A stretch of DNA of 64,000 bases from an uncultured Verrucomicrobiota bacterium (GCA_937860055.1 CALMBO010000014.1:25132-89131); one strand, 5' to 3'; positions 2 to 39,805 are shown, counted from the stretch's first letter. The notes: generated from the letters alone by a model not told the origin. Numbers and translations are program-made.

Positions 2-364
2 GAGTTCATCGACAGTATGGCCGATATCTTTCGCACTTCCAGGCAGGCCGCCGCCATCCGTTTCATCCAGACCACAGCCGAACCCTGCGCCTTCGTCCTA
101 TTCAGACAAGGCAGATACGAGTGGTCCCTGAAGAGCGACAGTTTTGAATTCTTCATACGCGACGGGGTACCACACAGGTACACCGGCGTGTCGGAATTGC
201 TTCGGGGAAAATCCGGGATGACCGGACCCGCCCAAACGCCGGCTGGCGCTTGGCTGCAGGATCAGGATCCGGACGGGCGGGCTTCGCTCATGGAGGATGC
301 CCGAGTATTGCCGGAATATGGCGAGGCGTTTGCATTGCTGTGGATCAACGAGGAATTGGATTGA
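2..364 (+). CDS. hypothetical protein, 5'-truncated by window edge
   Basis: The reading frame is open from the first window codon with no upstream stop. Product is 115+ aa with no recognisable motif. Confidence 0.35.
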   Translation, partial: EFIDSMADIFRTSRQAAAIRFIQTTAEPCAFVLFRQGRYEWSLKSDSFEFFIRDGVPHRYTGVSELLRGKSGMTGPAQTPAGAWLQDQDPDGRASLMEDARVLPEYGEAFALLWINEELD

Positions 365-808: not shown

Positions 809-1846
809 TTAAATGGAGAAGTGAGTATTAGGTTGCCATGACGGCACGGAAAGGGGGAACCCTTTCAATTGGTTGAAGGACATATTTAGAGGATCGACAT
901 TTGAGAGAAAGGCTTTCCTGAACAGGTTCTGATTCTGTTGCCCAAGAGAGTCGAACCAGTCCGGAGATAACGCAAGGTTTTCCGTTTGGCAGGCAACAAG
1001 CCATACAAGTGCGGAGGTGATGTCCGCTTGATTTATAAGGGATGCGACAAGGGTTGTTGGTGCCGAATTTGCCGTGTCAAGATGTGACAAAAGGGCAAAA
1101 CTGCCCGTGCTGGATGGGATAATCGTGATCATCAGGTGGCTGAGATCGACATCAACATTGTCGAAATCCTGGAGATCATTCCCGTTGAAATCGAAATCAG
1201 GCGCGTACAGAAAATTGCACACAAGCCCGGGTCTATCAGCAAACGGAATTATCGTAGTACAGAGGCGGCGCCAATCGTTTTGCTGGAATATCGAGTCCAT
1301 TTTAGCCTTCAGTCGCTCGATTTCCTCTGCGCCACGCAAAGATCCCGCTTGATGAAGAAGTGCGAAATCAGAGGGCTGCAGGTTCAATTCATCCGGCAAG
1401 TTGTGGATGGCCTTGATCGTTTCTGGCGAAGGCTGTGTTTCCGCCTGCTTGCGCTTCAGGTAGCATTCCTTAGCGACCGCTCTATAGGCGTGCAGGAAAC
1501 ATTGTTCGGGAGTACACATAAACGCTACGGTTTCAATTGGAGCAAATAGATCCCGATCATGTTTCGCGCAGAAACCATTGAACACGGAGGTGTCCCTAAT
1601 GCCTTTAAGGACAAGACGGGTTGCGCCATCTGCATTAGCGGTAAAAAGGTCCGTTTCCACGGCATAAACATGGCCGTCCCGTGCGATGGGCCGGAGCATA
1701 CTTTCGGCCGACAGAGTATGAGCGGATATTACAGGTCCCTGGCAGTCTTGCGTGGGGGCCATGCATTTCTTGGCACTAAATCGCTTCCGAAATGACCGGA
1801 TAAGGTCAGCTGCGGCCTTTGGATTTGGCAAATCACCAATGTTCAT
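809..1846 (-). CDS. hypothetical protein (345 aa)
   Basis: A 345-codon ORF is unlikely by chance at about 52% GC. It is the last gene of a long co-directional minus-strand gene string. No recognised domain; it contains a Cys/His segment (GFCAKHDRDLF). Confidence 0.55.
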   Translation of the reverse strand: MNIGDLPNPKAAADLIRSFRKRFSAKKCMAPTQDCQGPVISAHTLSAESMLRPIARDGHVYAVETDLFTANADGATRLVLKGIRDTSVFNGFCAKHDRDLFAPIETVAFMCTPEQCFLHAYRAVAKECYLKRKQAETQPSPETIKAIHNLPDELNLQPSDFALLHQAGSLRGAEEIERLKAKMDSIFQQNDWRRLCTTIIPFADRPGLVCNFLYAPDFDFNGNDLQDFDNVDVDLSHLMITIIPSSTGSFALLSHLDTANSAPTTLVASLINQADITSALVWLVACQTENLALSPDWFDSLGQQNQNLFRKAFLSNVDPLNMSFNQLKGFPLSVPSWQPNTHFSI

Positions 1847-2379
1847 ATATGAAACTAATCCAATGCCATTATTGGGCGAGGCTGATGGCCGGCATCGTCA
1901 GAAAAAGAAGTCCCCGTCCCTTTAGAGGCTGAGGGTTTCCTGATCCAGATGTCCGAGGACATCCTTTTCTACTCGTCTCTTTTTGGTTGCGCCGGCCTTT
2001 GCCTGTACATGTTGATCAAGCAGAGCCCTTGCCTTTCGATGCCGCGCTTTTCCGTTGCTTTGCTCGCCGACATTTACTCTGGGGCATGTTACAACATCTC
2101 GTTATCTGAAACCACAAAAAATCGCCAATTGTTTGCGGGAAAAATAGACGATTATAAGGTTGCTGGGCAGTGGCGGTGGCCGTGCGAACAAGGCAACTAT
2201 TATCAGTGAAAATGTGGCGAATGGGTGTCGGTTCAGACGTTCCGCCATGCGTTTGAGGGATTCGGATAGCCTTGTCAGCCCCTCGATGTCCCACAGCCCC
2301 CTCACGATGACCCGCGTGGCATCCGGGACGAGACGGACACCCATGGGGCCATCTCATACCCATGGTTCATCGCGGGCCG

Positions 2380-2919
2380 TTATGGGAACAGCGGTGGGGT
2401 GCCGTAGCTATCCTGCTGCCGGTTCAAACCGTAGCCATCATCGGCAGGCAAATCGGGCCGCTTGAGCAGTAGGGTAGAAAGTTCATCAGCCCGCTCGTTC
2501 TCTGGATGGCCTGCGTGACCCTTGACCCAGACAAATTCAACCTGGTGCTTGTCGCAGGCTGTCAGGAGCCGTTTCCATAGATCCGCGTTAAGCGCTTTCA
2601 CCTTCTTGGTCCGCCACCATCCCTTTCCCTCCCAACGGCGAACCCAACCCAATGACATCGCATCGACCAGATACTTGGAGTCGCTGTGGAGTCGGACGCG
2701 ACAGGGTACCTTCAGGGCCTCAAGCCCGGCGATGGCGGCAAACAGTTCCATCCGGTTGTTCGTCGTCAGGCGGAAGCCGCCATGCAGTTCCTTCCGAACA
2801 TCGCCGTGAATCAGGATGGCTCCATAGCCTCCAGCCCCCGGATTGGGTTCGCAGGCACCGTCGGTGTAGATCTCTACTGTTCCTGGAGCTTCATAACCTT
2901 TGGAATTATCGCGGTTCAT
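2380..2919 (-). CDS. rnhA: ribonuclease HI (RNase H type 1)
   Basis: Carries the conserved RNase HI blocks: EIYTDGAC..NPGx[25 protein letters not shown], and [21 protein letters not shown]. Start overlaps the upstream stop as ATGA. Confidence 0.85.
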
Positions 2920-3353
2920 AGAATTTCTTTCTTATCTTTCAGGTAATGTTCCAGTTTGTCATGGGAGAATACATCCGAGCCTCGGACTCCGCAGTTCAGA
3001 AACCTCAAATAGTAGTTTCGGGTATGCCGTTGATTTCTGGGAACGTTGTTCCAATTCCGCGTATGCAGATTGATTTCAACCGGCTGGACAACTATCTGGG
3101 AGTCATATTGAAATACCCGTCCGGAATAACTATTTGGCAGGCGGTGTCGTCGTTTATCGGCCTGAAGTCGTCGGTCACCCCGCGCTGAGCCGTCCCTTCC
3201 GGAATACGGCTTCCCGTCGATCATGCGCCGTCTATACTCGGCATTATGCGATGTGCTCGCAGGATCCTGGGATTTTCCGTTGATACCGCTCCATCGGATG
3301 CAGGTATAGTCCATGCTGGATGATGCATTATGGTCAGCTGTTTTCGTAGTCAT
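2916..3353 (-). CDS. hypothetical protein (145 aa, R/N/Q-rich)
   Basis: ORF is translationally coupled (ATGA) to the rnhA start. Composition is odd and there is no motif. An internal Met at 3314 would remove the overlap with the upstream gene. Confidence 0.3.
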
Positions 3354-3867
3354 GGTTGATTTCCTTTTCGCTATGGATGATTCGCAATGTGTCTTTAAAG
3401 GCTTCGGAATTCTCTAGCATCCACCACCCGAACACTCGCCTCCTTGGCCATCTACTTAAGTCATTCCGAGGATCGCGGATGTCGCATATTGAGCCGCCTA
3501 TAACCGCCACCCAATAATTGCTGAGGGTAACTATCAATCTGCCCATCGGTATGTCAGCCTCTTCCAAATACAATTTGCAAGCCCTTCCCCGTCGTCTAGG
3601 CGGATGCCAAACGAAACCCATGTTTTTCATGTAGTGGAGAAACTGGGCGTGGTTTGTGCATACCCCGTTCCTCGCTGTCTGCACTCCTGCGAGTCGGTGA
3701 TCAGGAAAGAATGTGCTGTAATAATTAGCATTCATTTCGGCACATTCTTTGTAGACCGCCTTGTATGGTCTTTTAGCTGCTATCGCGATTGCGCGGACTT
3801 CGCAGTCGCCGCAGTGACCTTTATAGCCTGCGGCCCTTCGCCCGCCATCTGTGAAAATTACCTCCAT
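3334..3867 (-). CDS. hypothetical protein (177 aa)
   Basis: Co-directional with the neighbouring minus-strand genes. No recognised domain. A competing plus-strand ORF at 3604-4095 looks like low-complexity antisense. Confidence 0.4.
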   Translation of the reverse strand: MEVIFTDGGRRAAGYKGHCGDCEVRAIAIAAKRPYKAVYKECAEMNANYYSTFFPDHRLAGVQTARNGVCTNHAQFLHYMKNMGFVWHPPRRRGRACKLYLEEADIPMGRLIVTLSNYWVAVIGGSICDIRDPRNDLSRWPRRRVFGWWMLENSEAFKDTLRIIHSEKEINHDYENS

Positions 3868-4109
3868 ATTGTCTCTCCTCTTGATGTCGTCATTTGTGGA
3901 TCTCGCAAATTGCCCATCATGCTGTCAGCCGTAACGATCATTTGCCCCGGCTCGTTCGCCGAATCGAACATCCCTCTGAGTCGGACGCCGATGCCTTTGC
4001 GAACAGGTCGAGGGCGGTGGGCGGGAGCATGTTTCCCGAGCAAACAACTTCCAGTTGAACTCTATCAGGGATTATTCCATATTTATGCCTCCTAGATGAT
4101 TCACCGCCC

Positions 4110-4724
4110 TCAGTAGATCCTAAATTCGCCCTTCGCCAACCAAGACGCAAAGGTTCGGAGAGCCTCGGCGCCCTCCAGGACGCGGGGATTCTGGTTCGTC
4201 TGGTCCTTGTCTTCCAGGCGATAGATGGAAGCGGCTACTTTGCAGGCCAATCCGGCCCGGTCCTCGGGTAATCCAATCGCGCCGCTCCTATCGAGTTCCG
4301 CGGCCGCCTGTTCGAGTGCGGCGGACATTCCCAGCGCATCTTCCGCCGCCACATATTGACCGTCGTTGCTCAAATACGACCCGCGCCAGTCGAGATTGCG
4401 GCGAGATGGGATGTCGATGGGATCGACGCCTCCCCATTGGGCGGAGTAAACCGCAAGCAGTTCCTCATAGGTCTGGCCGTTCCATCCGGTAGCGTGTTCG
4501 GCGAGTTCTTCCGGAGTCGTTCGATCATACAGCTCATCCATGTCCACGCTATAGACTGCGCCCTTCCCGGCGCCATATTGAAAACCAGCGGCATCCGGGG
4601 TTATGAAGTATTGGGTTCCCTTTGGAATCCATCCGAACCGCTCCATCGTACGCAATAACATAGACCATTGTCCCCCCATGTAGTAATCCTTCGCCTCTCC
4701 GTCCCTGCATAGTATGTAGCTCAT
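4110..4724 (-). CDS. hypothetical protein (204 aa)
   Basis: ORF with a 4-nt overlap to the upstream gene (operon-like). No recognised domain. Confidence 0.5.
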   Translation of the reverse strand: MSYILCRDGEAKDYYMGGQWSMLLRTMERFGWIPKGTQYFITPDAAGFQYGAGKGAVYSVDMDELYDRTTPEELAEHATGWNGQTYEELLAVYSAQWGGVDPIDIPSRRNLDWRGSYLSNDGQYVAAEDALGMSAALEQAAAELDRSGAIGLPEDRAGLACKVAASIYRLEDKDQTNQNPRVLEGAEALRTFASWLAKGEFRIY

Positions 4725-5491
4725 ATTGTTTCCTCCTTTGTTGCGGTTGCCTGATCTGAATGCAAATGGCCGTTATCCATCCCGCCATTGTTTTGCTCCG
4801 CATCTTTTGGAGAGAGCCTGATCTGTGCGCTGGATTCTGGAGCCGTTGGGTCCGACAACAGCGCCCCCATCTCCGCCGCCATGTCCACTTGGTCGTCGCC
4901 CTCCTTGGGAAGCGTCCATGTGATTTCGAACCCACCTTCTACACCTTTGACCCGGCATGAAGCGCTGGCCGCGCAGTCCCAGTCTAGTCTAAGGATGTCA
5001 GGGTCAAATGCGATGCGCGTAGGGCTCCAGTCGCCCATGTCCACATAGAGCCCGCCCTTGCCGAGTGCTTTCTGATCGTCAGCATCGTCGTCTTGAGTCC
5101 ACGGGATGTGCCTTTTGATTACCGCACCGCTCAGCAGGTAGATCACCCAATCCAAATCGAACGGCAGAAGCCTAACCATTCCAGTGAAACCGCCACCAAG
5201 GTGGCCTCTCGCTGACCACGGAGAGAAGTCCATTCCCGCTTTTTCCTCCTCTAGGTAATCCGCAAACGATTTCAAGGTGAAATGGGCGCGAATTAGGGAT
5301 TCACTCGACTCGGGGCTATCAAACGGGGGAGCGTCCTTGTCGAGGGCCCATAGGTACACCAGATTGACCCGGTCATAGAAGGGCTGGCCATTCGCATCGA
5401 CGAGAACTTCGCAGATGTCTTGGCATTCGAATGTGGCAATTGAGTAGTTGGAGTATCTTCGTAGTATTTCCAGTGCGGTTGTTTTTTTCAT
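4721..5491 (-). CDS. hypothetical protein (256 aa, acidic)
   Basis: ORF in the same operon. No recognised domain. Confidence 0.55.
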   Translation of the reverse strand: MKKTTALEILRRYSNYSIATFECQDICEVLVDANGQPFYDRVNLVYLWALDKDAPPFDSPESSESLIRAHFTLKSFADYLEEEKAGMDFSPWSARGHLGGGFTGMVRLLPFDLDWVIYLLSGAVIKRHIPWTQDDDADDQKALGKGGLYVDMGDWSPTRIAFDPDILRLDWDCAASASCRVKGVEGGFEITWTLPKEGDDQVDMAAEMGALLSDPTAPESSAQIRLSPKDAEQNNGGMDNGHLHSDQATATKEETI

Positions 5492-5494
5492 GGA

Positions 5495-6400
5495 TTAGTT
5501 CTCCTCTTGATTAAGACCCGTCTGCGGAACCTCGACGACGCTCGGCGGTTCTCCTGGCGTCCCGACATATTGCGCCTTGACGGAATCCCATTCGCCCATA
5601 CTGCGGTCGATACAGAGCCGACATTCCATACAGCGGATAGGCTTGCATTTGCCATTTCCCAGCGCGGGGCTCCCATTCTTGTTTTGCGCTATATAGATTT
5701 TGCTCTCATATGGACATACCAGAGCGCCGCCCAACCGTTCCAGAGTGCCGTTGTGAGGCATTCGTAGATTTCTGAAGACTAGATCAACGCCAGGGGGCGG
5801 AATGTCATCGTCAGTTTCGGCGAGGTAGGTGATCAGGCCGTTGCCAATTGGATTCGGCATCCCATATTTGGCCACCATGTCGCTGTCCGTCGAAAGGTTG
5901 ACCCTGACCATATTGTGTTTCCCAGCCAATTCCTCCAAGGTGGTTCGGAACGGCTCGTTCCGCCATGCTCGGGTGTAGATGAAGTAGTTGAGATTCGTCG
6001 TATCTTCGGTCGCCGAGACGATCTCTTCCCATTTGTTTAGGTATTCGACAGAGTAGAACTCTCCTTTTTCGTGCAAGGCCACGGACACCCGTTCGTCTGG
6101 ATGGTTCTCTGTGAACTGGACAATCTCGGTTGTGATTGTCTCGATGAATTCAGGCTTCGTTGTGAGGTCGTAATTCTCAGCGTATCGCTCATGGTGGAAA
6201 AGAAACTGCCCCGTCGAGGCATAGCAATATTGGCGGCATATTATCGAAGCAAACGGACACCTGTTGTTGGGCATCCCAATCGACCATGCCAGTACATTGC
6301 ATCCCTTCTTGCTTACGGTGTTGGATAGCCAACCTCTCCTGACCGTTCTCCTGACCGCTGGGCTTTCGCCCGCCATATTATCATTCGCTTGTATCTTCAT
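5495..6400 (-). CDS. hypothetical protein with Cys-rich C-terminus (301 aa)
   Basis: First gene of the minus-strand operon. Cys clusters CPFASIICRQYCYAS and CKPIRCMECRLC suggest metal binding. No family assignment. Confidence 0.55.
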   Translation of the reverse strand: MKIQANDNMAGESPAVRRTVRRGWLSNTVSKKGCNVLAWSIGMPNNRCPFASIICRQYCYASTGQFLFHHERYAENYDLTTKPEFIETITTEIVQFTENHPDERVSVALHEKGEFYSVEYLNKWEEIVSATEDTTNLNYFIYTRAWRNEPFRTTLEELAGKHNMVRVNLSTDSDMVAKYGMPNPIGNGLITYLAETDDDIPPPGVDLVFRNLRMPHNGTLERLGGALVCPYESKIYIAQNKNGSPALGNGKCKPIRCMECRLCIDRSMGEWDSVKAQYVGTPGEPPSVVEVPQTGLNQEEN

Positions 6401-6647
6401 TCTGATTCTCCTTTTGGATTATGAGAATCTTTATACATCGAAAAATGGCCGCCCTTAAAAAATGCGTAAAATAGTTATGCGGATGCGCGGGAAACAAAGA
6501 ATTCCCATGAAAACCCCAATAATTCTGCCGATCTGCCCCCTTCAGTATTTGTGAAATATCCCCCAAGAAATATTTTCGCTGGAAGGACAGGATAAATATT
6601 TGTGAGCACGGAATAACCAGTCATCCAACAAATAGGAGGACTGGAAA
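6401..6647. promoter_or_regulatory. AT-rich divergent intergenic region between the minus-strand cargo operon and the plus-strand RHH/primase operon
   Basis: A 247-bp non-coding AT-rich stretch lies between divergent first genes. An AGGAGG Shine-Dalgarno sequence sits just before the ATG at 6648. Confidence 0.4.
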
Positions 6648-8900: not shown

Positions 8901-9950
8901 CTATTCGAACTCGATCGAGTAGACATTCCCTTGCTTGATGGTGAAGAAGCCTTCCCTGCAAGACTTATTACGGGGTTTTCCTCGTTGTGCGGAAGCGATG
9001 ACCGCAAGGTCGAATCCGGCTTGAGCCTCAGTTTTGCTCGCGAAAATGCGATACATACTAAGAAGGGCTTGTTTGTGGATTCCGAGACGTTCCGAGGCGA
9101 TGATGTCCACCAATAAGCCGTAGCCAGACCCTGGGCGGAAGGGATTCTTTGGGTGACGGAGCAGGTTAGCCACAGGAGTTCCCTTGTATGAGCTTTCGGT
9201 GGGATTGCTTTTGGCTGGGATATTCTCGGCAACCGGCTTGGCCTTCTTGGCGGGAGCCATTCTCGCAGGCTTGGCGGGCGGGACCTTTTCCAAGTATTCC
9301 TGCACTGACGCTTTTATAGCGAACGATGCATTTGGATCAAAGATATCCCATCCGCATGCCGGAGGATGTCCATGTTTCTTCCAGTATTCCATGACGGAAA
9401 TCGGAATTTCGGTGGCAAGTCGATAATAGACATCCTTGCCGATGGCCATTTTCTCGACCACCGACCGCCAATTGTTGTCGGGATGCAAGGGGTTGGCCAC
9501 CACGCCAAAGGCCAGATAGAACATTGTAACATCTATTGTGCCGTTGGCACCCATAAGTGTCAGTTTATCAGATGTAAGATGACCATTATTAAGCAGTTCC
9601 CAAGTTCTGGCCGCCTCGGAATTTGGATGATCTAGGAAAGGGTTATTGGTGGCGAGGGGATGCGTTCCAGACTGTTTGGCTTTCACCGGAACTCTGGCTT
9701 TTTGTTTGTGCATATGTACAATCTCGAATGCACTCAATCCAATGTCAATCCTGAACGGAGCCCGCCTGTGATTTCTAAAACAAAACCTTCCCGTCATGAT
9801 TTGATGATAAGGGTGTATGCTGACATTCTTCGGGGCATCCACTATCGCCATGAGTTCGCCAGAAGGGATCCCGTCGTTAGAAATAAATGCGAGGGCATCA
9901 TTGACGCTCTGGGTTCTAATCATGAGTCCTTCTCGGCATTCGAGGCCCAA
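8901..9950 (-). CDS. hypothetical protein (up to 349 aa; true start may be an internal Met near 9797-9851)
   Basis: Long ORF with a Lys/Pro-rich central linker (KAKPV..PAKS). It overlaps plus-strand ORFs at both ends, so the strand assignment is uncertain. Confidence 0.4.
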   Translation of the reverse strand: MGLECREGLMIRTQSVNDALAFISNDGIPSGELMAIVDAPKNVSIHPYHQIMTGRFCFRNHRRAPFRIDIGLSAFEIVHMHKQKARVPVKAKQSGTHPLATNNPFLDHPNSEAARTWELLNNGHLTSDKLTLMGANGTIDVTMFYLAFGVVANPLHPDNNWRSVVEKMAIGKDVYYRLATEIPISVMEYWKKHGHPPACGWDIFDPNASFAIKASVQEYLEKVPPAKPARMAPAKKAKPVAENIPAKSNPTESSYKGTPVANLLRHPKNPFRPGSGYGLLVDIIASERLGIHKQALLSMYRIFASKTEAQAGFDLAVIASAQRGKPRNKSCREGFFTIKQGNVYSIEFE

Positions 9951-10670
9951 GACGGAAGCCTGTTGGTAGATATTCTGGCCAAGGCCTATCGAAAGGCCAA
10001 GAAGAATACGGACGGATCAAATATCCAAAAAGATCTCTCCGCATTTTTTATATCCTATGGAATATTGCCCATTGCACCATTGGGAAGGCCATTCTTAGGC
10101 GAGAACATTAGATTGAATCGGAAAACTGGAATACCGAGTCATAATTATGGAGAAAGCGACCATATTTGGCTGAAAATAGTTTGGAACAAGCTGTTGGCAT
10201 TTGAGATATTTGCTATGGCGGAATTCTCATTGCCTCATCCGATAATGATGCCGGTCCTGCCGCTATCATTGCCAACGACTAAAACAGGCAATAATGATCT
10301 TCGAGAGAATGTCGAGGTAACGCCAACCTCATTGCCTGTGTACATCAACATCCTACAGTCTCCCGAGGTGTTGGCGAACTACATTACTGCTTTTGCGGAG
10401 CAAGGAAGAGAGTCTCGCCTTTTGCAAATGCCAAAACAAGAGTCGGACTATAGAAGCGTTAAGACCGACGAGAGCAAATACGAGCGGTATCTTGATGCCC
10501 TTGATCTGGATTTGAAGTGCCAAGAAGGAGTACCATACGGCGATAAGTATGAATATTTTCAACGATACAACGACTTCCATAATCCAACTGGCGACGCCAT
10601 CATCACGTTTTACAAGGATTCAAGAAGATGTGCCCGGTTGTACCGTGATAAATACCGGCTAATTGTCTGA
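9660..10670 (+). CDS. hypothetical protein (up to 336 aa; alternative start at 9804)
   Basis: Long ORF co-directional with the plus-strand operon. It overlaps the 5' end of the minus-strand ORF at 8901-9950. No recognised domain. Confidence 0.35.
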   Translation: MRSRLFGFHRNSGFLFVHMYNLECTQSNVNPERSPPVISKTKPSRHDLMIRVYADILRGIHYRHEFARRDPVVRNKCEGIIDALGSNHESFSAFEAQDGSLLVDILAKAYRKAKKNTDGSNIQKDLSAFFISYGILPIAPLGRPFLGENIRLNRKTGIPSHNYGESDHIWLKIVWNKLLAFEIFAMAEFSLPHPIMMPVLPLSLPTTKTGNNDLRENVEVTPTSLPVYINILQSPEVLANYITAFAEQGRESRLLQMPKQESDYRSVKTDESKYERYLDALDLDLKCQEGVPYGDKYEYFQRYNDFHNPTGDAIITFYKDSRRCARLYRDKYRLIV

Positions 10671-11624: not shown

Positions 11625-12797
11625 ATGAAATCGCTGAAACACATTCCCGATGTATCGACGAAGAACATGGGCAACAAGGATAAGACCGGCGTCCAAGCCG
11701 ACGGCACCAAGAAATCTCTGCTGAAGGCCATTTCTGAAGCCATCGGCGATTGTCCCGAAGGAGTTATCGACCTGACCGCCGGGAGTCTTGCGGTATCCCT
11801 GCATCTGAATTCCATTTGCGGGAAGCGGGTAATCGCCAACGATTGTCGTAAGGCGTCATATTACACGGGGCTGGCCTTTTTCAACAGCGATGGGGTGGTT
11901 ATCGGGGCCAAAGATATCGAACTGCTCCAACATGGTGGTCTTGTCGCCGGTCCCGTAGTCAAACTGCTCGAGTCAGTCTTGGGCAAAAATAACGCAACGC
12001 AATTTGACCGGATCATCCGCAACCTGGGTTGTCTTGCCGGTGCCGGTGCCGAACAGAAGCGTATCATTGCGATAGCCGGCATCCTCCAGGCTATCTCCGG
12101 AGCCCTCAACGTCTACCATCTTCGGGGGGCCAACAGGGACTGCGGTGCCGCCGGGAACGAACATCTCAGGGATGCCGATCTTATCTCCGAATGGCGGGAA
12201 TGGGTCCTTGTCAAGCATCCGGAGATCGCCAAGGGGATTACCCTCGGTTGCGAAATCTACAACGAAGACGCCGTCTCGCTTATGCAGGATAAGAAGCCTT
12301 CAGCATCCTGCCTATATTTAGATCTTCCATACGGAATAGGAAATTATATTGCCGACCTTAAGGTCTTCGAGGACATCTGCAATCTTTGCGAGGGGAAACG
12401 GCCAGGCGACCCGGTATTCGGGCGCCCCGCTCAACCTAAACATCGGTTCGACAACCGCATCGACTACATTGGCAACCTGACGAAGCTGCTTCTGGGGTCC
12501 GACCATATCCCGCGCTGGGTGATTTCCATTAATACAAGTTCGCCCGTTAAGCCCGAAGAGATTGTCAGGATTGTCCGGTCTTTTGGCAGGAAATGCGAAA
12601 TCCGGCGTTACAAGGTCTCCCTGGCAACCAACCGCAAGAGGGCAACTCCCCTCGAAAATTATGAATGCTTGATCATATGTACGCCAGACGCCGAGCTTGA
12701 AAAACAAATTTCAGGCATTCGCAGTCGTTTCGAATCAATGGCCAGTTCCCGCCGTCTATTGTCTCCGAGTACGGGGAACAAACAGGAGCGCAAATGA
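11625..12797 (+). CDS. N6-adenine DNA methyltransferase, Dam-like (alpha-class) candidate
   Basis: An N-terminal AdoMet-binding-like block (VIDLTAGSLAVSLHLN) resembles Dam FxGxG. A downstream DPPY-type motif reads CLYLDLPYGIG. The motif order (FxGxG then DPPY) fits the D12/Dam class. Confidence 0.55.
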   Translation: MKSLKHIPDVSTKNMGNKDKTGVQADGTKKSLLKAISEAIGDCPEGVIDLTAGSLAVSLHLNSICGKRVIANDCRKASYYTGLAFFNSDGVVIGAKDIELLQHGGLVAGPVVKLLESVLGKNNATQFDRIIRNLGCLAGAGAEQKRIIAIAGILQAISGALNVYHLRGANRDCGAAGNEHLRDADLISEWREWVLVKHPEIAKGITLGCEIYNEDAVSLMQDKKPSASCLYLDLPYGIGNYIADLKVFEDICNLCEGKRPGDPVFGRPAQPKHRFDNRIDYIGNLTKLLLGSDHIPRWVISINTSSPVKPEEIVRIVRSFGRKCEIRRYKVSLATNRKRATPLENYECLIICTPDAELEKQISGIRSRFESMASSRRLLSPSTGNKQERK

Positions 12798-13281: not shown

Positions 13282-14109
13282 ATGAAATCACATAATCAGA
13301 TCAAAGAATCGAAAGTACACCCCCGTCCCGCCAGCGGAACTGGCGAATGGGCAGAGGAAAACATCAACATTCAGACCGGCTGCAACCGGGACTGCAAATA
13401 TTGCTATGCCAAATGCATGGCGGTTCGGTTCCGCCGCGCGACACCAGAATCGTGGCCCGACCAGGTTGTTGATGAGGCCAAGGTAAAAAAGCATTACGGT
13501 AAGTCGAAAGGCCGGGTTATGTTTCCCTCGACCCACGACATCAGCCCCGAAAACATCCAAGACTGTCTGCAGGTCATGGATTGTTTGCTGAAGGCCGGTA
13601 ACGACATCCTCGTTGTCAGCAAGCCCGAACTAGCCTGCATCAAGAGCATCTGCGCCAGATTCATAAACAATAAGCGACAGATACTCTTCAGGTTCACCAT
13701 CGGTTCAGCGGACGATGCAATTCTCACAAAATGGGAGCCGAACGCATCCTCATTCGGCGAGAGGCTAAAATGTCTCAAGCACGCTTACGCATTAGGCTAC
13801 GGTACTTCAGTCTCCTGCGAACCGATGCTGGATGCCCAGGTTGGCAAAGTCATCAAAGCCGTATCGCCATTCGTCACCGACTCGATCTGGTTGGGTCGGA
13901 TCAATCGGCTCCGCCAGACAATCGCGATCAATTGTCCTGGCGACGAAAGCATCAAAGCGCTGGCGAACCAATTACTGGCAGAGCAGACCGACGACTGGAT
14001 TCTGGCTCTGTATAATAACTTCAAGAACAACCCAATTATTCGATTCAAGGACTCCATCAAGAAAGTGGTGGGTCTTATAAGGCCGACAATAAAAGGGTTG
14101 GACATATGA
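13282..14109 (+). CDS. radical SAM protein, SplB/COG1533-like (DNA repair photolyase-type)
   Basis: CxxxCxxC motif embedded as GCNRDCKYCYAKC, matching the GC...C.YCYA pattern of COG1533. Size is about 275 aa. Stop overlaps the next start. Confidence 0.6.
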   Translation: MKSHNQIKESKVHPRPASGTGEWAEENINIQTGCNRDCKYCYAKCMAVRFRRATPESWPDQVVDEAKVKKHYGKSKGRVMFPSTHDISPENIQDCLQVMDCLLKAGNDILVVSKPELACIKSICARFINNKRQILFRFTIGSADDAILTKWEPNASSFGERLKCLKHAYALGYGTSVSCEPMLDAQVGKVIKAVSPFVTDSIWLGRINRLRQTIAINCPGDESIKALANQLLAEQTDDWILALYNNFKNNPIIRFKDSIKKVVGLIRPTIKGLDI

Positions 14110-16757: not shown

Positions 16758-16816
16758 CCGTCCGCCTCCAGCATGATATGGCCATTGGGTTCGCCACCAG
16801 AAAGGCGTCCGCCTCG

Positions 16817-16850
16817 CGGCCACCTGACCCATACCCCCGCACCCTCCAGC
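16817..16850. repeat. about 33-bp intergenic motif GGCCACCTGACCCAT..CCGCACCCTCCAGCC (copy 1)
   Basis: Near-identical copy at 17448-17480. A shorter CCCCTCCAGCCC version occurs at about 16134-16145. Each copy lies just 3' of a cargo gene. Confidence 0.6.
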
Positions 16851-16919: not shown

Positions 16920-17441
16920 ATGCCTAACTACTGCGAAAACCACTTAACCATCACAGGCCTTCGCAAGGACCTTGAAGTCTTTCGCGACAGCGCTGCTTTA
17001 CTAGAAGCGTCTTCCGAGGGTGATGAGGCTTCCCCCTTTTGCTTCAGCAAACTAGTGCCGGTCCCGGAACCCCTATTCGATATCAAGGATTATGAATACG
17101 ATTGGAAGGAGGAGCATTGGGGATGCCATCGGTCTGCAGAAGACGTCGATTGTTTCCTGTTCTGCGACGAAAATGGAAGAGGGCAGCTTGTCTATGAGTT
17201 CCTTACTCCCCGGTCGTGTCCTGTTAAGTTCATCGAGGGGATTTCGGCTAGATATCCGAACCTGACATTCTCCTTGATTGCCTTTATAGGGGAAGTCCAG
17301 TCTGCCGCGCTATATATCGCCCGTCGCGGCATCATATTTACCGAAATTGTGGGACATTACGAAGCGTCTCTGATGGATGATGCCTTTCAGGAAGGGCCGT
17401 ACACCTCATGGCGATTTATTCCGCCCCAGGAAGGCATCTAG
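16920..17441 (+). CDS. hypothetical protein, member 2 of the second paralogue pair
   Basis: RBS AAAGGAGAAA. An upstream GGTATAAT -10 lies at 16884-16891. Sequence blocks are shared with 16224-16757. Confidence 0.55.
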   Translation: MPNYCENHLTITGLRKDLEVFRDSAALLEASSEGDEASPFCFSKLVPVPEPLFDIKDYEYDWKEEHWGCHRSAEDVDCFLFCDENGRGQLVYEFLTPRSCPVKFIEGISARYPNLTFSLIAFIGEVQSAALYIARRGIIFTEIVGHYEASLMDDAFQEGPYTSWRFIPPQEGI

Positions 17442-17447
17442 CTGAAG

Positions 17448-17480
17448 GCCACCTGACCCATGCTCCGCACCCTCCAGCCC
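17448..17480. repeat. about 33-bp intergenic motif (copy 2)
   Basis: Matches 16817-16850 with a few mismatches and one indel. It starts 7 nt after the stop of the upstream gene. Confidence 0.6.
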
Positions 17481-17551
17481 CAAGCCCCCAGACGGACCTT
17501 TTCGAAAATCCACAACAGCGTTTAGGTGGTTCCGGAGGCTGAAAAAGGCCG

Positions 17552-19225
17552 TTGGCGACGGCTGCAGAAATGGACATGAAGAAAGGCAAAAAGAAGCGAG
17601 GCATTTGGCAGGACTTCCGCCCCTGTGACCCTGAGGGGAAGGCGTCGGCCGTCTACATTCGCATCTCCCGCGACGACGCCGGGGCGAAGAATCCCAAGGA
17701 GGCCAAGGAGTCCGCCCGGGTCCAGCAGTCGAAGTGCGAGGCCTACGCCAAGGAAAGGGGCTGGGCCGTCCGGCTCTATCAGGACATCAACCTTTCGGGC
17801 TTCGACGACGAGGGGCGTCCCGATTTCCAGCGGTTGCTTGCCGACATAAACGCAGGCCTCATCCACTCGGTCATCGTACTTGAGCCCAAGCGTCTAGCCC
17901 GCGACAACTCGATCATGGACGCGGTCGTCAAGGAATACCTCTATCCGAACGGGATCAAGCTCCATGGAGTAATGAGCCCGATCGACATCACGAACGATGA
18001 CGGGCTCTTCATGCTCGGCATCGAAATGGCCTTTTCCCGTAAGGCGATTTCGGAGCAGCGCAAGAAGTCCATGGCCTCCATCGACAGCCAACTGAAAGAA
18101 CACACCTTCATCCCCAGGCCATGCTACGGCTACCGGCGAGACGAGAAGGGGCGGATCCATGTGGTGGAGTCCGAAAAAGCGGTGATCCTGGAGATGTACC
18201 GGATGTGTCTCAAGGGCGACTCGATGAACGAGATCAGCGAATATTTCAACCGAGCCGGCGTCCCGGGCAAGCGGGGGGCTAGGTGGTGGACCCACCGGCA
18301 GATCAAGATCGTCCTGACCAACCCGGCCTACGTGGGCAAGATCCGCTACCGGGGCGTGCATGAGACCCGGTTGATCCCCAAGATGGTGACCAAGGAGACG
18401 CAGGACTCGGCGGCGGAGATGCTGGCCATCAGGTCCCACAAGCGGGCGCCATCCAAGCGGCACCTCTTGAGCGGGCTGGTGACCTGTTCATATTGCGCTG
18501 AAAAGGCGAGCAGGGGCGAACGGGCCTATCCGGCGATGGTCCTGAACATCCAGACGCAGGGCCCCAAGGGAGAGAAGAAGAAGTACGCCTATTTTTTCTG
18601 CCAGTCCCAGAACCGGGGTGTGTTCCATTGCGAGTCGCCCAGGGTTCCGGAAGCCGCCTTGGACGCCATTGTCGAAGGCACCATCGTCCCTTATGTCCTG
18701 GACAGGTATTCGAGGCAGATCGGCGCCGACTCGCACCAGGAGACCCTCAAGAGGCTGGAGGCGGCGAGGGGGCGGGTCCGTCTCGTCGAGTCACGCAACA
18801 AGGAGATCGAGGATTCGTTCGCCTCCGGGGAGATGGGGAAACTGGAATACCTTCGTCTGAGGGACAAGAACCAGGCGAAGTCGTCGGTTGCGAGAGAGGA
18901 GATATCCGTTTTGCTCCAGATGGCCGAGTCGGAAGACCCGAACAAGGTTCAAGAGGTCGTGGATGTCTTGCAAAGATGGCAGGAGATGCCCATGGAGAAA
19001 CGGCGGGACGCCATCCGCACCTTCATCGAGTCAATCGAGGTTTCCGCCGAGTGGGTGACCTTCCATATCAGGCCCGTCGGGGGCGACAAGTGGTCGTTCA
19101 ATGTCCGACTGGAAACCGTGCGGAGATACCAGGAGAAGCCCATAGGGGATCTGAAGAATCATATGGAATGGACGCTGGGGCAGGCGGGGTATGCTAACCA
19201 GGAACCTTGTCCCAATGTCGGTTGA
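17552..19225 (+). CDS. large serine recombinase (integrase)
   Basis: N-terminal resolvase-type catalytic region with the serine motif AVYIRISRDD, followed by a long recombinase domain and a C-terminal Cys-rich zinc ribbon (CSYCAEK...FFCQSQNRGVFHCESP). Length is 557 aa. It lies at the junction with host DNA. Alternative start at 17573. Confidence 0.85.
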   Translation: MATAAEMDMKKGKKKRGIWQDFRPCDPEGKASAVYIRISRDDAGAKNPKEAKESARVQQSKCEAYAKERGWAVRLYQDINLSGFDDEGRPDFQRLLADINAGLIHSVIVLEPKRLARDNSIMDAVVKEYLYPNGIKLHGVMSPIDITNDDGLFMLGIEMAFSRKAISEQRKKSMASIDSQLKEHTFIPRPCYGYRRDEKGRIHVVESEKAVILEMYRMCLKGDSMNEISEYFNRAGVPGKRGARWWTHRQIKIVLTNPAYVGKIRYRGVHETRLIPKMVTKETQDSAAEMLAIRSHKRAPSKRHLLSGLVTCSYCAEKASRGERAYPAMVLNIQTQGPKGEKKKYAYFFCQSQNRGVFHCESPRVPEAALDAIVEGTIVPYVLDRYSRQIGADSHQETLKRLEAARGRVRLVESRNKEIEDSFASGEMGKLEYLRLRDKNQAKSSVAREEISVLLQMAESEDPNKVQEVVDVLQRWQEMPMEKRRDAIRTFIESIEVSAEWVTFHIRPVGGDKWSFNVRLETVRRYQEKPIGDLKNHMEWTLGQAGYANQEPCPNVG

Positions 19226-19317
19226 CAGACCCCCTTCTGGGGCTTAATCTGCAATCACTCTATATAAGGTATAGACCACTCTAACCCCAATATGGCATCT
19301 AACACATAGAATTACCA

Positions 19318-20313
19318 ATGGGTTACAGTTTACACCACAGGGGATATTATTCCGACGTGAAGGGGCAGGAGTTCGCGCGTCGCGCGATCGAAGTGGCGGT
19401 GGCCGGTGGCCACAATATCCTCCTGGTGGGGCCGCCGGGCACGGGGAAATCCATGCTGGCCAAGCGGGTGCCGACGATCCTGCCGCCGCTGGGGCTGGAA
19501 GAGGCGCTGGAGACGACGAAGATCCACAGCATCGCGGGGGTGCTGCCGGCGCACCAGGCGGTGGTGGGGGGTCGGCCGTTCCGGTCGCCGCACCACACGA
19601 TTTCCGATGCGGGGCTGCTGGGCGGCGGCACGCATCCGCTGCCCGGCGAAGTCAGCCTGGCGCACAACGGGGTGCTGTTCCTTGACGAGCTGCCGGAGTT
19701 CCACCGCAACGTGCTGGAGGTGATGCGCCAGCCGCTGGAGGATGGCGTGGTGTCCATTGCGCGCGCGGCGGCTTCGGTGACGTTTCCGTGCCGGTTCATG
19801 CTGGTGGCGGCGATGAATCCGTGTCCGTGCGGGCATTTCGGGGATGCGAAGCGGGAATGCCGGTGCACGCCGGTCCAGATGCAGCGCTACCGAAACCGGA
19901 TTTCGGGGCCGCTGCTGGACCGCATCGACATCCACGTCGAGGTGCCGGCGATGGAATACCAGCAGCTGGCGTCGCTGGAGAAGGGGGAGTCCTCTTCGCA
20001 GATCCGGGAGCGGGTGGTGGCGTCGCGGGCGGTTCAGCGGGAGCGGTTCGCCAAGGGCCGGGGGGCGCATGCGATCCACTGCAACGCGGGGATGCGGGCC
20101 AAGGACGTGCACAAGCACTGCATGCTGGACGATGCGGCGCAAAGCCTGCTCAAGGCCGCGATGGCCGACCTGCACCTGAGCGCCCGCGCCTATGACCGGA
20201 TTTTGAAGGTAGCCCGGACGATCGCGGACCTGGCGGGGGAGGGCGACATTGCCGCCGACCATGTCGCCGAGGCCATCCAGTACCGCTCCCTGGACCGGCA
20301 ATACTGGACCTGA
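19318..20313 (+). pseudogene. comM: comM (Mg-chelatase-like AAA+ competence ATPase), 3' fragment; 5' part displaced by element insertion
   Basis: The 331-aa ORF aligns to the ComM/YifB C-terminal two-thirds only, beginning at [29 protein letters not shown] (Walker A). The N-terminal domain of about 170-190 aa is absent. The first codons are AT-rich junction DNA, and the GC switch occurs at about 19350. Confidence 0.75.
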
Positions 20314-20399
20314 GGCCGCACAGGCCGACAATCCTTGACAACAAGGGCCGCATTCGCTCCAATTCCGCGTTGGATATCCGATTACACAAGGAGGCCCCA

Positions 20400-21803
20400 A
20401 TGGCATTCAAGGTCAACATCGTCGGCATCGTGGCATGGGTTTTGGTGGTGGTTCTGGCCATCGCGGCGGGAGTGCTGGGATTTCTGGGCCAGCAACAGGC
20501 GGGCAAGGCGGCGGGATTGCGCGATGCGCTGGTGCAGGTGGCTGCGACGGCGGGGGTTCAGGAGTTGAAGCCGGCGGAAGCGGCGCCCGAAGCCGCTCCG
20601 GCGGAAGGAGAGGCGGCCGCCGCCCCGGCGGCGGCGCAGCCGCTGACGGCGGATGCGCTGAAGGACACGGCGGTGCTGGCAACCGCCGTGCAGCAATTGC
20701 AGACGGCCATCCAGGTGACGCAGCAGGAACTGGCGACCACGAAGGATTCCCTGACGGCTTCGCAGATGGAAGCTTCCAACGCCAAGACCGAATCGGCGGC
20801 CTTGTCCCAGAAAGTACAGAAACAGACGGCGGCGGCGGAGGCGGCAACCAAGGACCTGGCGGCGAAGGGCGAAGAAGTCGCGGCCGCCAAGGCGGCGGCG
20901 GAGAAGGCGGGCCAGGAATTGCAGGAAGCCAAGCAGTCCGCCGAAAAGCAGAAGGCTGAGATGGAAGCTTCCCTCGAGGACTTGAAGGCGCAGATGGCGG
21001 AGGAGACCGCCCGCCTCCAGGCGGAGCTGGAAGCGGCCCGGCAGGAGGCGCAAGCCACCACGGAACAGGCGGCGGCACCCGAAGCCGTCGAAGCCGCGGG
21101 AGAGGAAGGGGATGCCGTGGCCATGGAAGACGTGGTCATGGAAGAGGCCGTTGCCGCAGAGCCGGAGATGGCTGCCGAAGAGCCGGTGGCGGAGCCGGAA
21201 GCGGTAGAGGAAGAGAAGCCGGGCCGGGTGATCGGCCAGTCGCAGATGTTTTCGCTCATCCGTTATTCGGAGGAGGACCAGGGCTTGTTCCTCCGCTTGC
21301 TGGACGGGCAGACGTTGACCTATCGGGAGGTTCCTCGGGATGTCTATGACCAGCTGGTCGGCGCGGAGGACAAGCTGGACATGATCTACCGCTTCAAGAT
21401 CCAGGGCGCATTCAAGAGCCTGCCTCCGGACAGCACGGTGGTGCGCAAGTATTGGAAGGGACAGCGCTACAAGCCGGCGAAGAGCGATGTGCGCGTGATC
21501 GAGCCGGAGGCCCCGCTGGTCATCGTGGACGAGCAGCCTGCCGCCGAAGAGGCCGCTCCCGCCGAAGCCGTCGTGGCCGAGGCTCCCGCGGCGGAAGAAG
21601 CGGCTCCTGCCGCAGAGGCGGCCCCCGCAGAAGCTCCTGCCGAGACCCAGGCCCCCGTTGCGGAAGAGGCTGCTGCACCTGCTGCAGAGGAGGCTCCGGC
21701 GGCCGAGGCTCCTGTCGCAGAGGAGATCCCCGCCGAGACGTCTGCGCCGGAGGGGGAAGCCGCCCCGGCCCCTGCGGAGGAGGCGGTTCCGGCTTCGAAC
21801 TGA
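20400..21803 (+). CDS. membrane-anchored Ala/Glu-rich coiled-coil protein with KTSC-like domain
   Basis: AAGGAGG RBS before the ATG at 20400. N-terminal TM helix (IVGIVAWVLVVVLAIAAGVLGFL). Long A/E/K/Q-rich coiled-coil and PAEA repeats. A KTSC-like block reads FSLIRYSEEDQGLFLRLLDGQTLTYREVPRDVYDQL. Confidence 0.7.
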   Translation: MAFKVNIVGIVAWVLVVVLAIAAGVLGFLGQQQAGKAAGLRDALVQVAATAGVQELKPAEAAPEAAPAEGEAAAAPAAAQPLTADALKDTAVLATAVQQLQTAIQVTQQELATTKDSLTASQMEASNAKTESAALSQKVQKQTAAAEAATKDLAAKGEEVAAAKAAAEKAGQELQEAKQSAEKQKAEMEASLEDLKAQMAEETARLQAELEAARQEAQATTEQAAAPEAVEAAGEEGDAVAMEDVVMEEAVAAEPEMAAEEPVAEPEAVEEEKPGRVIGQSQMFSLIRYSEEDQGLFLRLLDGQTLTYREVPRDVYDQLVGAEDKLDMIYRFKIQGAFKSLPPDSTVVRKYWKGQRYKPAKSDVRVIEPEAPLVIVDEQPAAEEAAPAEAVVAEAPAAEEAAPAAEAAPAEAPAETQAPVAEEAAAPAAEEAPAAEAPVAEEIPAETSAPEGEAAPAPAEEAVPASN

Positions 21804-31708: not shown

Positions 31709-31736
31709 GGGAAGGGGAGCCGGCGGAGAGCCTTCC

Positions 31737-33539: not shown

Positions 33540-33552
33540 GGAGGAGCGAGCC

Positions 33553-34814: not shown

Positions 34815-34822
34815 GAGCCGCC

Positions 34823-36728: not shown

Positions 36729-36734
36729 GTGGAA

Positions 36735-39152: not shown

Positions 39153-39355
39153 TTCATGGAAGAGGTTATCGCAAACCGATGGAGGAAACAAGTCGGGAGA
39201 AGACCTTGTTGCATTTTATCCGGAGGCCCTCCGCCGGGTGCTCTTTCCTCCCTTCTGGGGCGGGAAATGGGGCGTTGACGGAAACAGGGGGAGGGGAATA
39301 AAGTTCCCCACGGCGAATTATCATCTGCGAATCCCAACCGGAGGAAGAAGCGATC

Positions 39356-39802: not shown

Positions 39803-39805
39803 GCG

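Follow-up and report, generated by a model that had tools for sequence, protein, structure and literature searches.

The window, a 64,000-nucleotide stretch of DNA from an uncultured Verrucomicrobiota bacterium, includes part of an integrated mobile element; this part extends from position 1 to about 19,300 and is set off by a compositional break (GC 0.53, versus 0.66 for the host). At the element's end, a large serine recombinase with Resolvase, Recombinase and Zn_ribbon domains adjoins the 3' part of comM (a match to TIGR00368 positions 191-499). On the island, no structural genes of phages and no conjugation genes turned up. The host belongs to the PVC group and resembles Kiritimatiellia: one hydrogenase gene shares 85-89% identity with genes from MAGs labelled Opitutia, Verrucomicrobia or Kiritimatiellia, and from one labelled Lentisphaerae.

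Between positions 809 and 6400, seven minus-strand ORFs (g1 to g7) stand where an earlier sequence-only reading had placed them. These genes and the features around them are as follows:

6401..6647, no strand: AT-rich divergent intergenic region between g1 and a 61-aa basic ORF plus primase on the plus strand
5495..6400, minus strand: g1, GP88-family protein of 301 aa, the operon's first gene
4721..5491, minus strand: g2, acidic 256-aa protein of a narrow uncharacterised family
4110..4724, minus strand: g3, acidic 204-aa near-orphan protein
3864..4013, minus strand: C5 DNA methyltransferase pseudogene remnant (the last ~50 codons), between g3 and g4
3334..3867, minus strand: g4, phrog_3754 protein of 177 aa with a papain-like (clan CA) fold
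2916..3353, minus strand: g5, basic 145-aa protein
2380..2919, minus strand: g6, RNase HI of 179 aa, last gene of the conserved array
2102..2344, minus strand: 80-aa ORF reported by gene callers, of uncertain status
809..1846, minus strand: g7, Rugutis-family protein of 345 aa

All seven ORFs look coding: under codon statistics learned from the island's genes, each scored better in its proper frame than in the other two. Ribosome-binding sites of the AAGGAG/GAGGAG/AGGAGG/AAGGAA type precede g1 to g5, and none was recognisable for g7. In comparison with the related element L028, dN/dS was 0.19 for g1, 0.31 for g4 and 0.23 for g6, while the C-terminal domain of g5, compared with L119, gave a pS of 0.67 and a pN of 0.23. 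Diverged copies of these four genes are under purifying selection.

The sequence-only reading had described one seven-gene operon whose junctions overlap by 4 nt or lie within a few bp. This is accurate for g1/g2 (a 3-nt spacer), g2/g3 and g5/g6 (4-nt overlaps) and g4/g5 (a 20-nt overlap). It does not apply to g3/g4, where a 242-nt gap contains the 3' remnant of a C5 methylase, or to g6/g7, where the gap is 533 nt and contains the 80-aa ORF. Strand and short or overlapping junctions unite g1-g3 and likewise g4-g6, and the order is conserved among relatives; g7 falls outside. The genes g1-g6 form a co-directional array, and we infer that they are co-transcribed.

The region upstream of g1 is AT-rich, as had been claimed (GC 0.40, versus 0.53 for the island), and contains two copies of TCACAAATA about 50 nt apart. 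From its position only, it is presumed to be a bidirectional promoter and operator region; scanning for the sigma-70 consensus gave no promoter in this interval, and no terminator was convincing. The primase, a primase-polymerase, matches phrog_2597 and PriS-like models, in agreement with the earlier statement that the element encodes its own. In related elements the array likewise lies opposite a small-regulator/primase module, with a 61-64 aa ORF and a primase facing the operon in all of the related loci that reach that far.

Protein families of g1 to g6

RNase HI had been thought the only recognisable product, with the six proteins around it matching nothing that could be named. For g2, g3 and g5, which are real genes of narrow distribution in uncharacterised families, that description stands; g1, g4 and g7 have family matches (Pfam GP88, phrog_3754 and Rugutis, respectively). 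None of the proteins belongs to an ordinary phage structural family; had they done so, this would have told against the earlier proposal.

The g1 product matches Pfam GP88 (PF17338) at 9.5e-23 (81.7 bits, the cut-off being 24.4), with positions 17-229 of the 230-position profile covered, and also matches phrog_1392. This family, named after a mycobacteriophage gene product, has actinophage members that, like g1, are encoded within strings of small non-structural genes. Seven cysteines (C48, C55, C59, C229, C257, C260 and C263) are invariant in alignments of g1 with its element and actinophage homologues, and g1 is probably a cysteine-cluster protein binding Fe-S or zinc. The element versions differ from the actinophage members by an extra insertion of ~40 residues, and the L028 version has a 90-residue C-terminal extension. 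Orthologues in L010, L028, L119 and L122 are 69-83% identical to g1.

The g4 product, in addition to its match to phrog_3754, has a papain-like (clan CA) fold; the clan CA cysteine peptidases nearest to it are Josephin-type clippases and deubiquitinases, staphopains and C39 peptidase domains. Cys22 and Asp129 of the catalytic site are present, and Tyr118 occupies the histidine position. Distant members keep the histidine, as do L028 and L116, and the catalytic cysteine is replaced by serine in P0028-P0030, P0032, P0033 and P0035. Given the lost histidine, g4 in the window may be inactive or decaying.

The gene g5, which always lies between g4 and RNase HI, encodes a small, basic protein (pI 10.0) whose N-terminal third varies and whose C-terminal domain of 80 residues is conserved; it had no family or PDB matches. 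The window has an intact g5 ORF, and so do L028, L116, L122 and L119. Indels in the variable part relative to L028 and L116 (9, 6, 9 and 6 nt) are all multiples of 3, and the ORF antisense to g5 is not conserved in L119.

The RNase HI assignment of g6 was borne out. The protein matches NF001236 (3.2e-56; 189.1 bits, above the curated cut-off of 160) and Pfam RNase_H, PF00075 (1.6e-39; 135.8 bits against 25.8). It is 52% identical to E. coli RnhA, and D20, E58, D80, H135 and D145 align with D10, E48, D70, H124 and D134, so that all five catalytic residues are kept. It shares with bacterial RNase HI (RnhA) the full-domain match and these D-E-D-H-D residues; it differs in having N- and C-terminal extensions of ~13 and ~30 residues, and in its place at the end of a mobile element's accessory operon. 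Its start codon overlaps the g5 stop (ATGA), and orthologues in L013, L015, L028, L116, L119 and L122 are 76-87% identical.

The g2 and g3 products are acidic (pI ~4.5; 4.53 for g3), and neither has an anti-restriction family match in Pfam. Among the relatives fetched, g2 is the most frequently present gene of the operon; g3 occurs in only two clusters among 5.8 billion proteins searched.

Related elements, a methylase remnant and the insertion carrying g7

About ten related elements were found in metagenomes and MAGs, and their layouts were mapped by tblastn. Eight of these are:

L119: GP88-g2-C5 methylase-g4-g5-RNase HI
L122: GP88-g3-(methylase remnant)-g4-g5-RNase HI
L028: GP88-C5 methylase-g4-g5-RNase HI
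L013: g2-C5 methylase-RNase HI
L015: C5 methylase-g2-C5 methylase-RNase HI
L010: GP88-g2'-g2-C5 methylase
L017: g2-(methylase 5' remnant)-340-aa gene-g3
L029: 340-aa-like gene-(methylase 3' remnant)-g4

Any part may be absent somewhere, and the order is constant: GP88; g2; an orphan C5 DNA methylase, or else a cassette of a 340-aa gene and g3; g4-g5; RNase HI. The g1-g6 array recurs in related elements in conserved order and its genes are therefore linked; the order is kept even where the proteins of two copies are only 53-88% identical. Each gene is missing from some relatives, and the array is not a fixed, co-evolved module. The sequence-only reading had named the six proteins around RNase HI as the window's best candidates for an undescribed functional module. 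Four copies have a nearly identical 250-nt segment in common. Since the relatives are all metagenome or MAG copies of one lineage, the conserved order could be due in part to recent shared descent and recombination, instead of selection that keeps the genes linked.

No intact DNA methyltransferase is present in the window operon, where the 50-codon 3' remnant alone survives; a separate D12-like methylase is encoded on the island at 11625-12797. Positions 3864-4013 are 50% identical to residues 60-109 of the L029 methylase fragment (tblastn, E 4e-11), and the same 3' remnant is found in L122-L124. Intact C5 methylases occupy this position in L028, L119, L013, L015 and L010, and the orphan methylases of the relatives fall into two families, ~27% identical to each other. 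In L017, L019 and L020, a methylase 5' remnant precedes the 340-aa gene, which is followed by a g3 homologue (58% identical), and in L122 a 90%-identical copy of g3 is followed by the methylase 3' remnant. In the window lineage, the 340-aa/g3 cassette took the place of the middle of the C5 methylase gene; a subsequent deletion left g3 between the tail of the 340-aa gene, now fused to g2, and the methylase 3' remnant. Precomputed Pfam matches of methylase-adjacent genes included no restriction-enzyme family, many of these neighbours being without any match.

The inclusion of g7 in a single seven-gene unit was not upheld. It lies 533 nt from g6 in a lineage-specific insertion of its own (~1.8-2.1 kb), across which homology with relatives is lost between ~2430 and ~365-654, and it is absent from every related locus fetched. 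The same insertion contains the 80-aa ORF, which is called in L001-L008 with a weak coding score (0.03) and for which no family match and no homologue in related loci was found.

Rugutis is a validated single-gene antiphage system of lactococcal plasmids, described as a 359-aa protein with a SEC-C motif at locus pUCCL633_059 (Nucleic Acids Res 2024, PMC11381338). BLASTP aligned g7 with the 359-aa SEC-C protein of pUCCL633A (25% identity over 305 residues, E 9e-26), which we take to be Rugutis from the plasmid name, length and motif rather than from the deposited sequence. The two proteins have the motifs C..C..ISAH, GFCxxHD, PIE, YRA and TEN in common, and both genes lie on mobile DNA beside other defence genes, g7 apparently standing alone as Rugutis does. 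They differ in source (a PVC-group bacterium versus a Firmicute) and at the N terminus: the SEC-C zinc motif in the first ~25 residues of Rugutis is missing from g7, whose alignment starts only at about Rugutis residue 49. Consistent with this, g7 has no PF02810 match and lacks the CxC...CC/CH motif of the Lactococcus and Vibrio proteins. Some plasmid homologues (Rhizobium, Priestia) are also annotated without SEC-C, the Rhizobium entry appearing N-terminally truncated as annotated. Rugutis had no fold match in the PDB.

The plasmid homologues of g7 are single genes, with Abi, ABC-three-component and ATPase/helicase genes as neighbours. A CBASS system lies just left of the window, and CBASS genes are next door in L001, L013, L028 and L122. 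Judged from its sequence, g7 is a candidate stand-alone antiphage gene outside the operon; it was inserted independently and groups with the neighbouring defence cargo (an M78 peptidase, a sigma-like gene and CBASS).

Possible roles of the operon

On balance, the seven genes probably fall into two parts, namely the mobile element's accessory operon of six genes and, inserted separately, a relative of the Rugutis antiphage gene. The RNase HI assignment apart, the functional roles considered here are ones that we infer. An operon given over purely to replication and recombination, in which GP88, g2, g4, g5 and RNase HI serve primase-initiated replication rather than anti-defence, is unlikely in our judgement. 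It would account for an array that diverges from the primase gene and always lies beside it, for the intact catalytic residues of RNase HI and for the small, basic g5, which fits nucleic-acid binding; primer processing by RNase H is a feature of ColE1-type and phage replication. However, no protein matches a replication family, the most regular companions of these genes are orphan C5 methylases rather than replication proteins, and among relatives with a primase there are some that lack any given one of these genes, RNase HI and g2 among them.

We give still less credence to the absence of any joint function, with unrelated selfish or decaying cargo appearing linked through recent recombination among related elements. 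Pseudogene remnants and fusion joints are visible, the g4 catalytic site carries substitutions, four copies share the near-identical segment and gene content varies widely among relatives. Set against these are purifying selection on g1, g4, g5 and g6, an order conserved despite the protein divergence, and retained junctions that are fit for translational coupling. Least probable of all is an undescribed defence or counter-defence system acting on RNA:DNA hybrids, comprising g1-g6 or only the g4-g5-RNase HI block. That block, with its overlapping junctions, is kept in five diverged elements, its gene families are uncharacterised, and the element has further defence genes (CBASS and the Rugutis-like g7). 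Yet L013 and L015 have RNase HI straight after the methylase without g4-g5, the catalytic histidine of g4 is lost in the window lineage, and the block lies within the element's backbone operon whereas the defence genes lie in its cargo region. The best PADLOC v2.0.0 matches were also insignificant (E ~0.01-0.015; 0.015 for g1 and 0.0097 for g6), and g2-g5 and g7 had none, the library predating the publication of Rugutis. For RNase HI itself, no observation speaks for a part in defence or counter-defence.

The reading that we favour, with somewhat better than even confidence, is a modular establishment operon that combines restriction evasion with replication support, accompanied by g7 as an independent defence gene. 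The operon (6400-2380) would be transcribed from the AT-rich region that it shares with the small basic ORF and primase-polymerase, and its likeliest role would be to establish the element after entry or induction. Host restriction would be evaded through the methylases in relatives and possibly, judging by acidity and position only, through the acidic g2 and g3 proteins in the window copy. It is plausible that RNase HI acts in primer or R-loop processing; by removing RNA primers or R-loops, it would support primase-initiated replication of the element. Against this part of the reading stands the absence of RNase HI from L010, L017 and L029 (three of ten layouts, each readable through the operon end), so that element replication does not require it.

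Such an operon would resemble the leading regions of plasmids (Nature 2024, PMC11541004) and the early regions of phages, which are likewise made up of co-directional, small, mostly uncharacterised genes together with orphan DNA methylases, a hallmark of the anti-defence regions of both (PMC11541004). These clusters and the operon alike adjoin genes for replication or entry, and their content differs from one relative to another. In contrast to such clusters, the array shows no oriT, relaxase or SSB and no known anti-restriction or anti-CRISPR family; it belongs to an integrative island with a primase that is not known to be conjugative, and the window copy is without a methylase. The content of the locus is ordinary for a mobile element and does not demonstrate a new system. 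Were the operon there to evade restriction, the methylase-less copy in the window would do so differently or not at all.

Gene order in the operon and its relatives

The sequence-only reading placed a seven-gene operon on the minus strand at 809-6400. All seven ORFs lie exactly at the positions claimed, and when codon usage was modeled on other genes of the island, every one scored higher in its own frame than in either shifted frame.

Genes of the region
6400-5495, minus strand: g1, GP88 family protein
5491-4721, minus strand: g2
4724-4110, minus strand: g3
4013-3864, minus strand: 3' remnant of a C5 DNA methylase gene
3867-3334, minus strand: g4, papain-like protein (phrog_3754)
3353-2916, minus strand: g5
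2919-2380, minus strand: g6, RNase HI (rnhA)
1846-809, minus strand: g7, Rugutis homologue

Clear Shine-Dalgarno sequences precede g1, g2, g3, g4 and g5. The tight junctions that had been described exist between g1 and g2 (3-nt spacer), g2 and g3 (ATGA overlap), g4 and g5 (20-nt overlap), and g5 and g6 (ATGA overlap), but not between g3 and g4, which are separated by 242 nt, or between g6 and g7, where a 533-nt gap contains an 80-aa ORF reported by public gene callers. The divergent region from which the operon was proposed to be driven (6401-6647) is indeed AT-rich, with a GC content of 0.40 versus 0.53 for the island, but a simple sigma-70 scan detected no promoter in it. Promoter, terminator and repeat scans gave no signal above background for the operon, and no convincing terminators were found in its region. 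TCACAAATA occurs twice in the divergent region (~6545-6606, copies ~50 nt apart); the two copies may be operator sites for the adjoining 61-aa basic ORF.

We compared the neighborhoods of diverged g2, g3 and g4 homologues, together with one locus found by DNA word, and mapped all proteins of the window onto them. Every related locus that extends far enough has the operon genes facing away from a 61-64 aa ORF and the primase across a common divergent junction.

Layouts of the window and of related loci on other contigs (L numbers). C5MT or MT, orphan C5 DNA methylase; RNH, RNase HI.
Window: GP88-g2-g3-(MT 3' remnant)-g4-g5-RNH-[80 aa]-g7, then M78
L119: GP88-g2-C5MT-g4-g5-RNH
L122/123/124: GP88-g3-(MT 3' remnant)-g4-g5-RNH, then M78...CBASS
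L028: GP88-C5MT-g4-g5-RNH, then M78...CBASS
L116: g4-g5-RNH
L013: g2-C5MT-RNH, then M78...CBASS
L015/16: 118aa-C5MT-64aa-g2-C5MT-RNH
L010: 110aa-GP88-g2'-g2-C5MT-62aa
L017/19/20: g2-(MT 5' remnant)-340aa-g3-62aa
L029/30: 340-like-(MT 3' remnant)-g4-(g5 fragment)

It follows from these layouts that the order [GP88][g2][C5 methylase][g4-g5][RNase HI] is conserved, while any element can be absent. RNase HI itself is dispensable in some relatives. Orphan C5 methylases are regularly present and fall into two families with ~27% identity between them; among the neighboring genes, many of which lack any precomputed Pfam hit, no restriction-enzyme family was recorded. The locus is a modular accessory operon (g1-g6) of mostly uncharacterized, lineage-restricted families in a conserved order, plus a Rugutis-family gene, g7, that was acquired independently and is not a seventh member of the operon. 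Related loci carry other genes as well: a reverse-transcriptase gene (RVT_1, 516 aa) occupies the far end of L013 (1-561), and a three-gene cluster encoding a C5 methylase, an HATPase_c_3 protein (647 aa) and a PF28273 protein lies near the g4 relative in L029 (12439-16797) and L030 (9225-13583). The latter looks like a separate defense or modification module.

Identities of the encoded proteins

RNase HI had been taken to be the only recognizable product; g1, g4 and g7 can be assigned to families as well. The g6 product is a genuine RNase HI (NF001236, 3.2e-56, above the cut-off of that model), with 52% identity to E. coli RnhA and all five catalytic residues kept. The g1 product matches Pfam GP88 over the full length (9.5e-23); seven of its cysteines are invariant with actinophage members (C-x6-C-x3-C and C...C-x2-C-x2-C), an arrangement suggestive of a protein with a metal or Fe-S cluster. 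A relationship between GP88 and the island's radical-SAM protein, considered because both encode ...YCYA, was rejected for want of significant similarity.

The g7 product shares 25% identity over 305 residues (E 9e-26) with a 359-aa SEC-C protein of the Lactococcus plasmid pUCCL633A, a protein whose plasmid, length and motif match those of Rugutis, a single-gene system with experimentally demonstrated antiphage activity (PMC11381338; reviewed in PMC13064643). The core motifs are kept in g7, whereas the N-terminal SEC-C motif is absent. Plasmid homologues of g7 are stand-alone genes located beside Abi, ABC-three-component and ATPase/helicase genes.

The remaining proteins are more isolated. The g2 family is real and well conserved but very narrow: 5.8 billion proteins yielded just 25 clusters. 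When 1.84 billion representatives were searched exhaustively with a profile, there were 10 hits, and apart from the close family the search found only weak multi-repeat hits to an HYR-rich protein; a profile scan of GTDB species genomes found no relatives, and g2 could not be assigned to a family, PDB entry or fold. The weak, repeated matches of the family profile to this 2564-aa protein of HYR (Ig-like) repeats fall at g2 residues ~154-202 (window ~4886-5032), and we do not count them as evidence; there is at most a faint hint of a beta-sandwich or Ig-like region there. Only two clusters were found for the near-orphan g3, which like g2 is acidic (both pI ~4.5). In the lineage of the window, g4 probably lacks peptidase activity. 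Sequence searches of solved structures with g1, g2, g4, g7 and the antisense ORF described below yielded nothing significant.

None of the family and PDB libraries searched contained a homologue of g5, yet it is a real gene: its ORF is intact in five diverged elements, every indel relative to L028 and L116 is a multiple of three, and its C-terminal 79 codons show pS of 0.67 versus pN of 0.23 against the most distant copy (L119).

Methylase remnants, the g7 insertion and the g5/rnhA segment

The 242-nt interval between g3 and g4 contains the last ~50 codons of a C5 methylase (3864-4013, minus strand; E 4e-11). In addition, the last 28 residues of g2 in the window resemble the end of a 340-aa protein (E 0.002), and in L017 a methylase 5' remnant lies upstream of 340aa-g3; in relatives, matching 5' and 3' remnants flank a 340-aa/g3 cassette. 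Taken together, the 3' remnant, the g2 tail and the L017 5' remnant indicate that the interior of the methylase gene gave way to a 340aa-g3 cassette, and that later deletions led to the arrangement now seen in the window.

At the other end of the operon, the nucleotide homology that the window shares with L122, L028 and L013 breaks off near 2431, within the 3' end of rnhA, and returns at 365 (L122, L028) or 654 (L013), in the M78 gene end and downstream spacer. Because of these breakpoints, and because g7 is absent from all related loci, we identify g7, with its surrounding small ORFs, as a lineage-specific insertion of ~1.8-2.1 kb at the border of the operon and the defense cargo.

A ~250-nt segment covering the 3' part of g5 and the start of rnhA differs hardly at all among four elements that are diverged elsewhere, its flanks included (window ~2900-3165; L028 10700-10960; L116 1240-1500; L122 3110-3370). 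This near-identity, together with an antisense 80-aa ORF that is open in all four copies, raised the suspicion of a non-coding element or dual coding in g5. Both were ruled out: the segment has no Rfam match, its predicted RNA fold is not significant (z = 0.92 and -0.49), and in a fifth copy (L119) the g5 frame shows ordinary synonymous divergence and the antisense ORF is broken (start lost, stop gained). Since this fifth copy diverges normally, recent recombination or common descent best accounts for the similarity of the other four. A 20-mer from the segment matched six metagenome loci, one a true relative (L116) and the other five chance matches in unrelated genes.

The surrounding island and possible roles of the operon

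The first ~19.3 kb of the window form a low-GC island (0.53 vs 0.66) that ends with a large serine recombinase abutting the 3' two-thirds of comM/yifB. The window begins inside an M78 gene, and contigs with identical copies extend the island to the left with the M78 peptidase, a sigma-like gene, DUF2188, a Hypoth_Ymh gene and CBASS. No phage structural or conjugation genes were recognized on the island.

Other features of the island
Divergent from the operon: 61-aa basic ORF and 577-aa primase-like protein
17-364, plus strand: C-terminal part of M78
11625-12797: D12-like adenine methylase
13282-14109: radical-SAM protein with weak DUF5131 similarity
L001 (identical copy) 17445-20452, just left of the window, also in L013, L028 and L122: CBASS (DUF6602 protein, DncV-like nucleotidyltransferase, E2-CBASS, 4HFCP_synth-like protein)

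A DNA-modification role for the D12-like methylase and radical-SAM protein is conceivable. In a comparison of the window with L010, L013, L015, L028 and L122, the integration module proved exchangeable too, swapped between relatives, because some carry a 211-220 aa tyrosine recombinase next to ruvB in place of the window's large serine recombinase in comM (17552-19225; 19318-20313).

The island also contains two paralogous pairs: 14106-14957/15417-16127 (283 and 236 aa; 44% identity over 147 residues in the identical copy on L004) and 16224-16757/16920-17441 (177 and 173 aa; both match one L010 ORF, with 35% and 31% identity), each member of the latter being followed by a 48-nt direct repeat (16790-16837 and 17419-17466). 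ORFs 8901-9950 (minus) and 9660-10670 (plus) share 291 nt (9660-9950); each has a positive coding score, and gene callers disagree on them in identical copies. Beyond the island, host region 31653-43515 encodes a NiFe hydrogenase large subunit and NuoF/NuoE-like and glutamate-synthase-like fusion proteins; the hydrogenase gene is 85-89% identical to genes in MAGs labeled Opitutia, Verrucomicrobia or Kiritimatiellia, and one labeled Lentisphaerae. The closest relatives belong to MAGs of Kiritimatiellia and others of the PVC group.

The architecture itself is shown. As to function, we infer that g1-g6 constitute a modular establishment operon, because orphan C5 methylases recur regularly and because the operon adjoins replication genes. 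In both respects it resembles the establishment or anti-defense clusters of plasmid leading regions and phage early regions, which typically feature orphan methylases (PMC11541004). The acidic g2 and g3 proteins would, on position and charge, be weak candidates for restriction evasion. The most straightforward role of RNase HI would be the removal of RNA primers or R-loops made in primase-initiated replication. That same role would suit a pure replication module, a less probable rival to the establishment reading. Functionally unrelated cargo is another improbable rival, against which the conserved gene order speaks. An undescribed defense or counter-defense system built around g4-g5-RNase HI is a third and likewise improbable one, and none of the seven proteins matches a known defense-system model at a meaningful level.

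A more specific proposal strikes us as improbable: that g4-g5-RNase HI, possibly with GP88 and g2, form a dedicated, undescribed counter-defense or replication-priming module, with g4 and g5 as targeting or regulatory partners and acidic g2 and g3 as new anti-restriction proteins able to stand in for an orphan methylase. In such a module RNase HI might destroy the RNA strand of RNA:DNA hybrids of host immunity (retron/DRT products, RNA-guided Argonautes) or, alternatively, process an R-loop primer at the element's origin. The sequence-only reading, partly confirmed in its observations and partly supported in its interpretation, had seen in the six proteins around RNase HI candidates for an undescribed functional module; no new kind of system is demonstrated.

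Current concepts are unchanged by these results, whose value lies in a corrected annotation and a short, testable list of candidates: g2 and g3 as possible methylase-replacing restriction-evasion proteins, and the g4-g5-RNase HI block. Tests of restriction evasion and of antiphage activity could reasonably draw on the locus for candidates, and its SEC-C-less g7 could help to delimit the smallest active core of the Rugutis family. If the establishment reading is right, an integrative element of a poorly studied group keeps its establishment genes in a fixed order with exchangeable slots.
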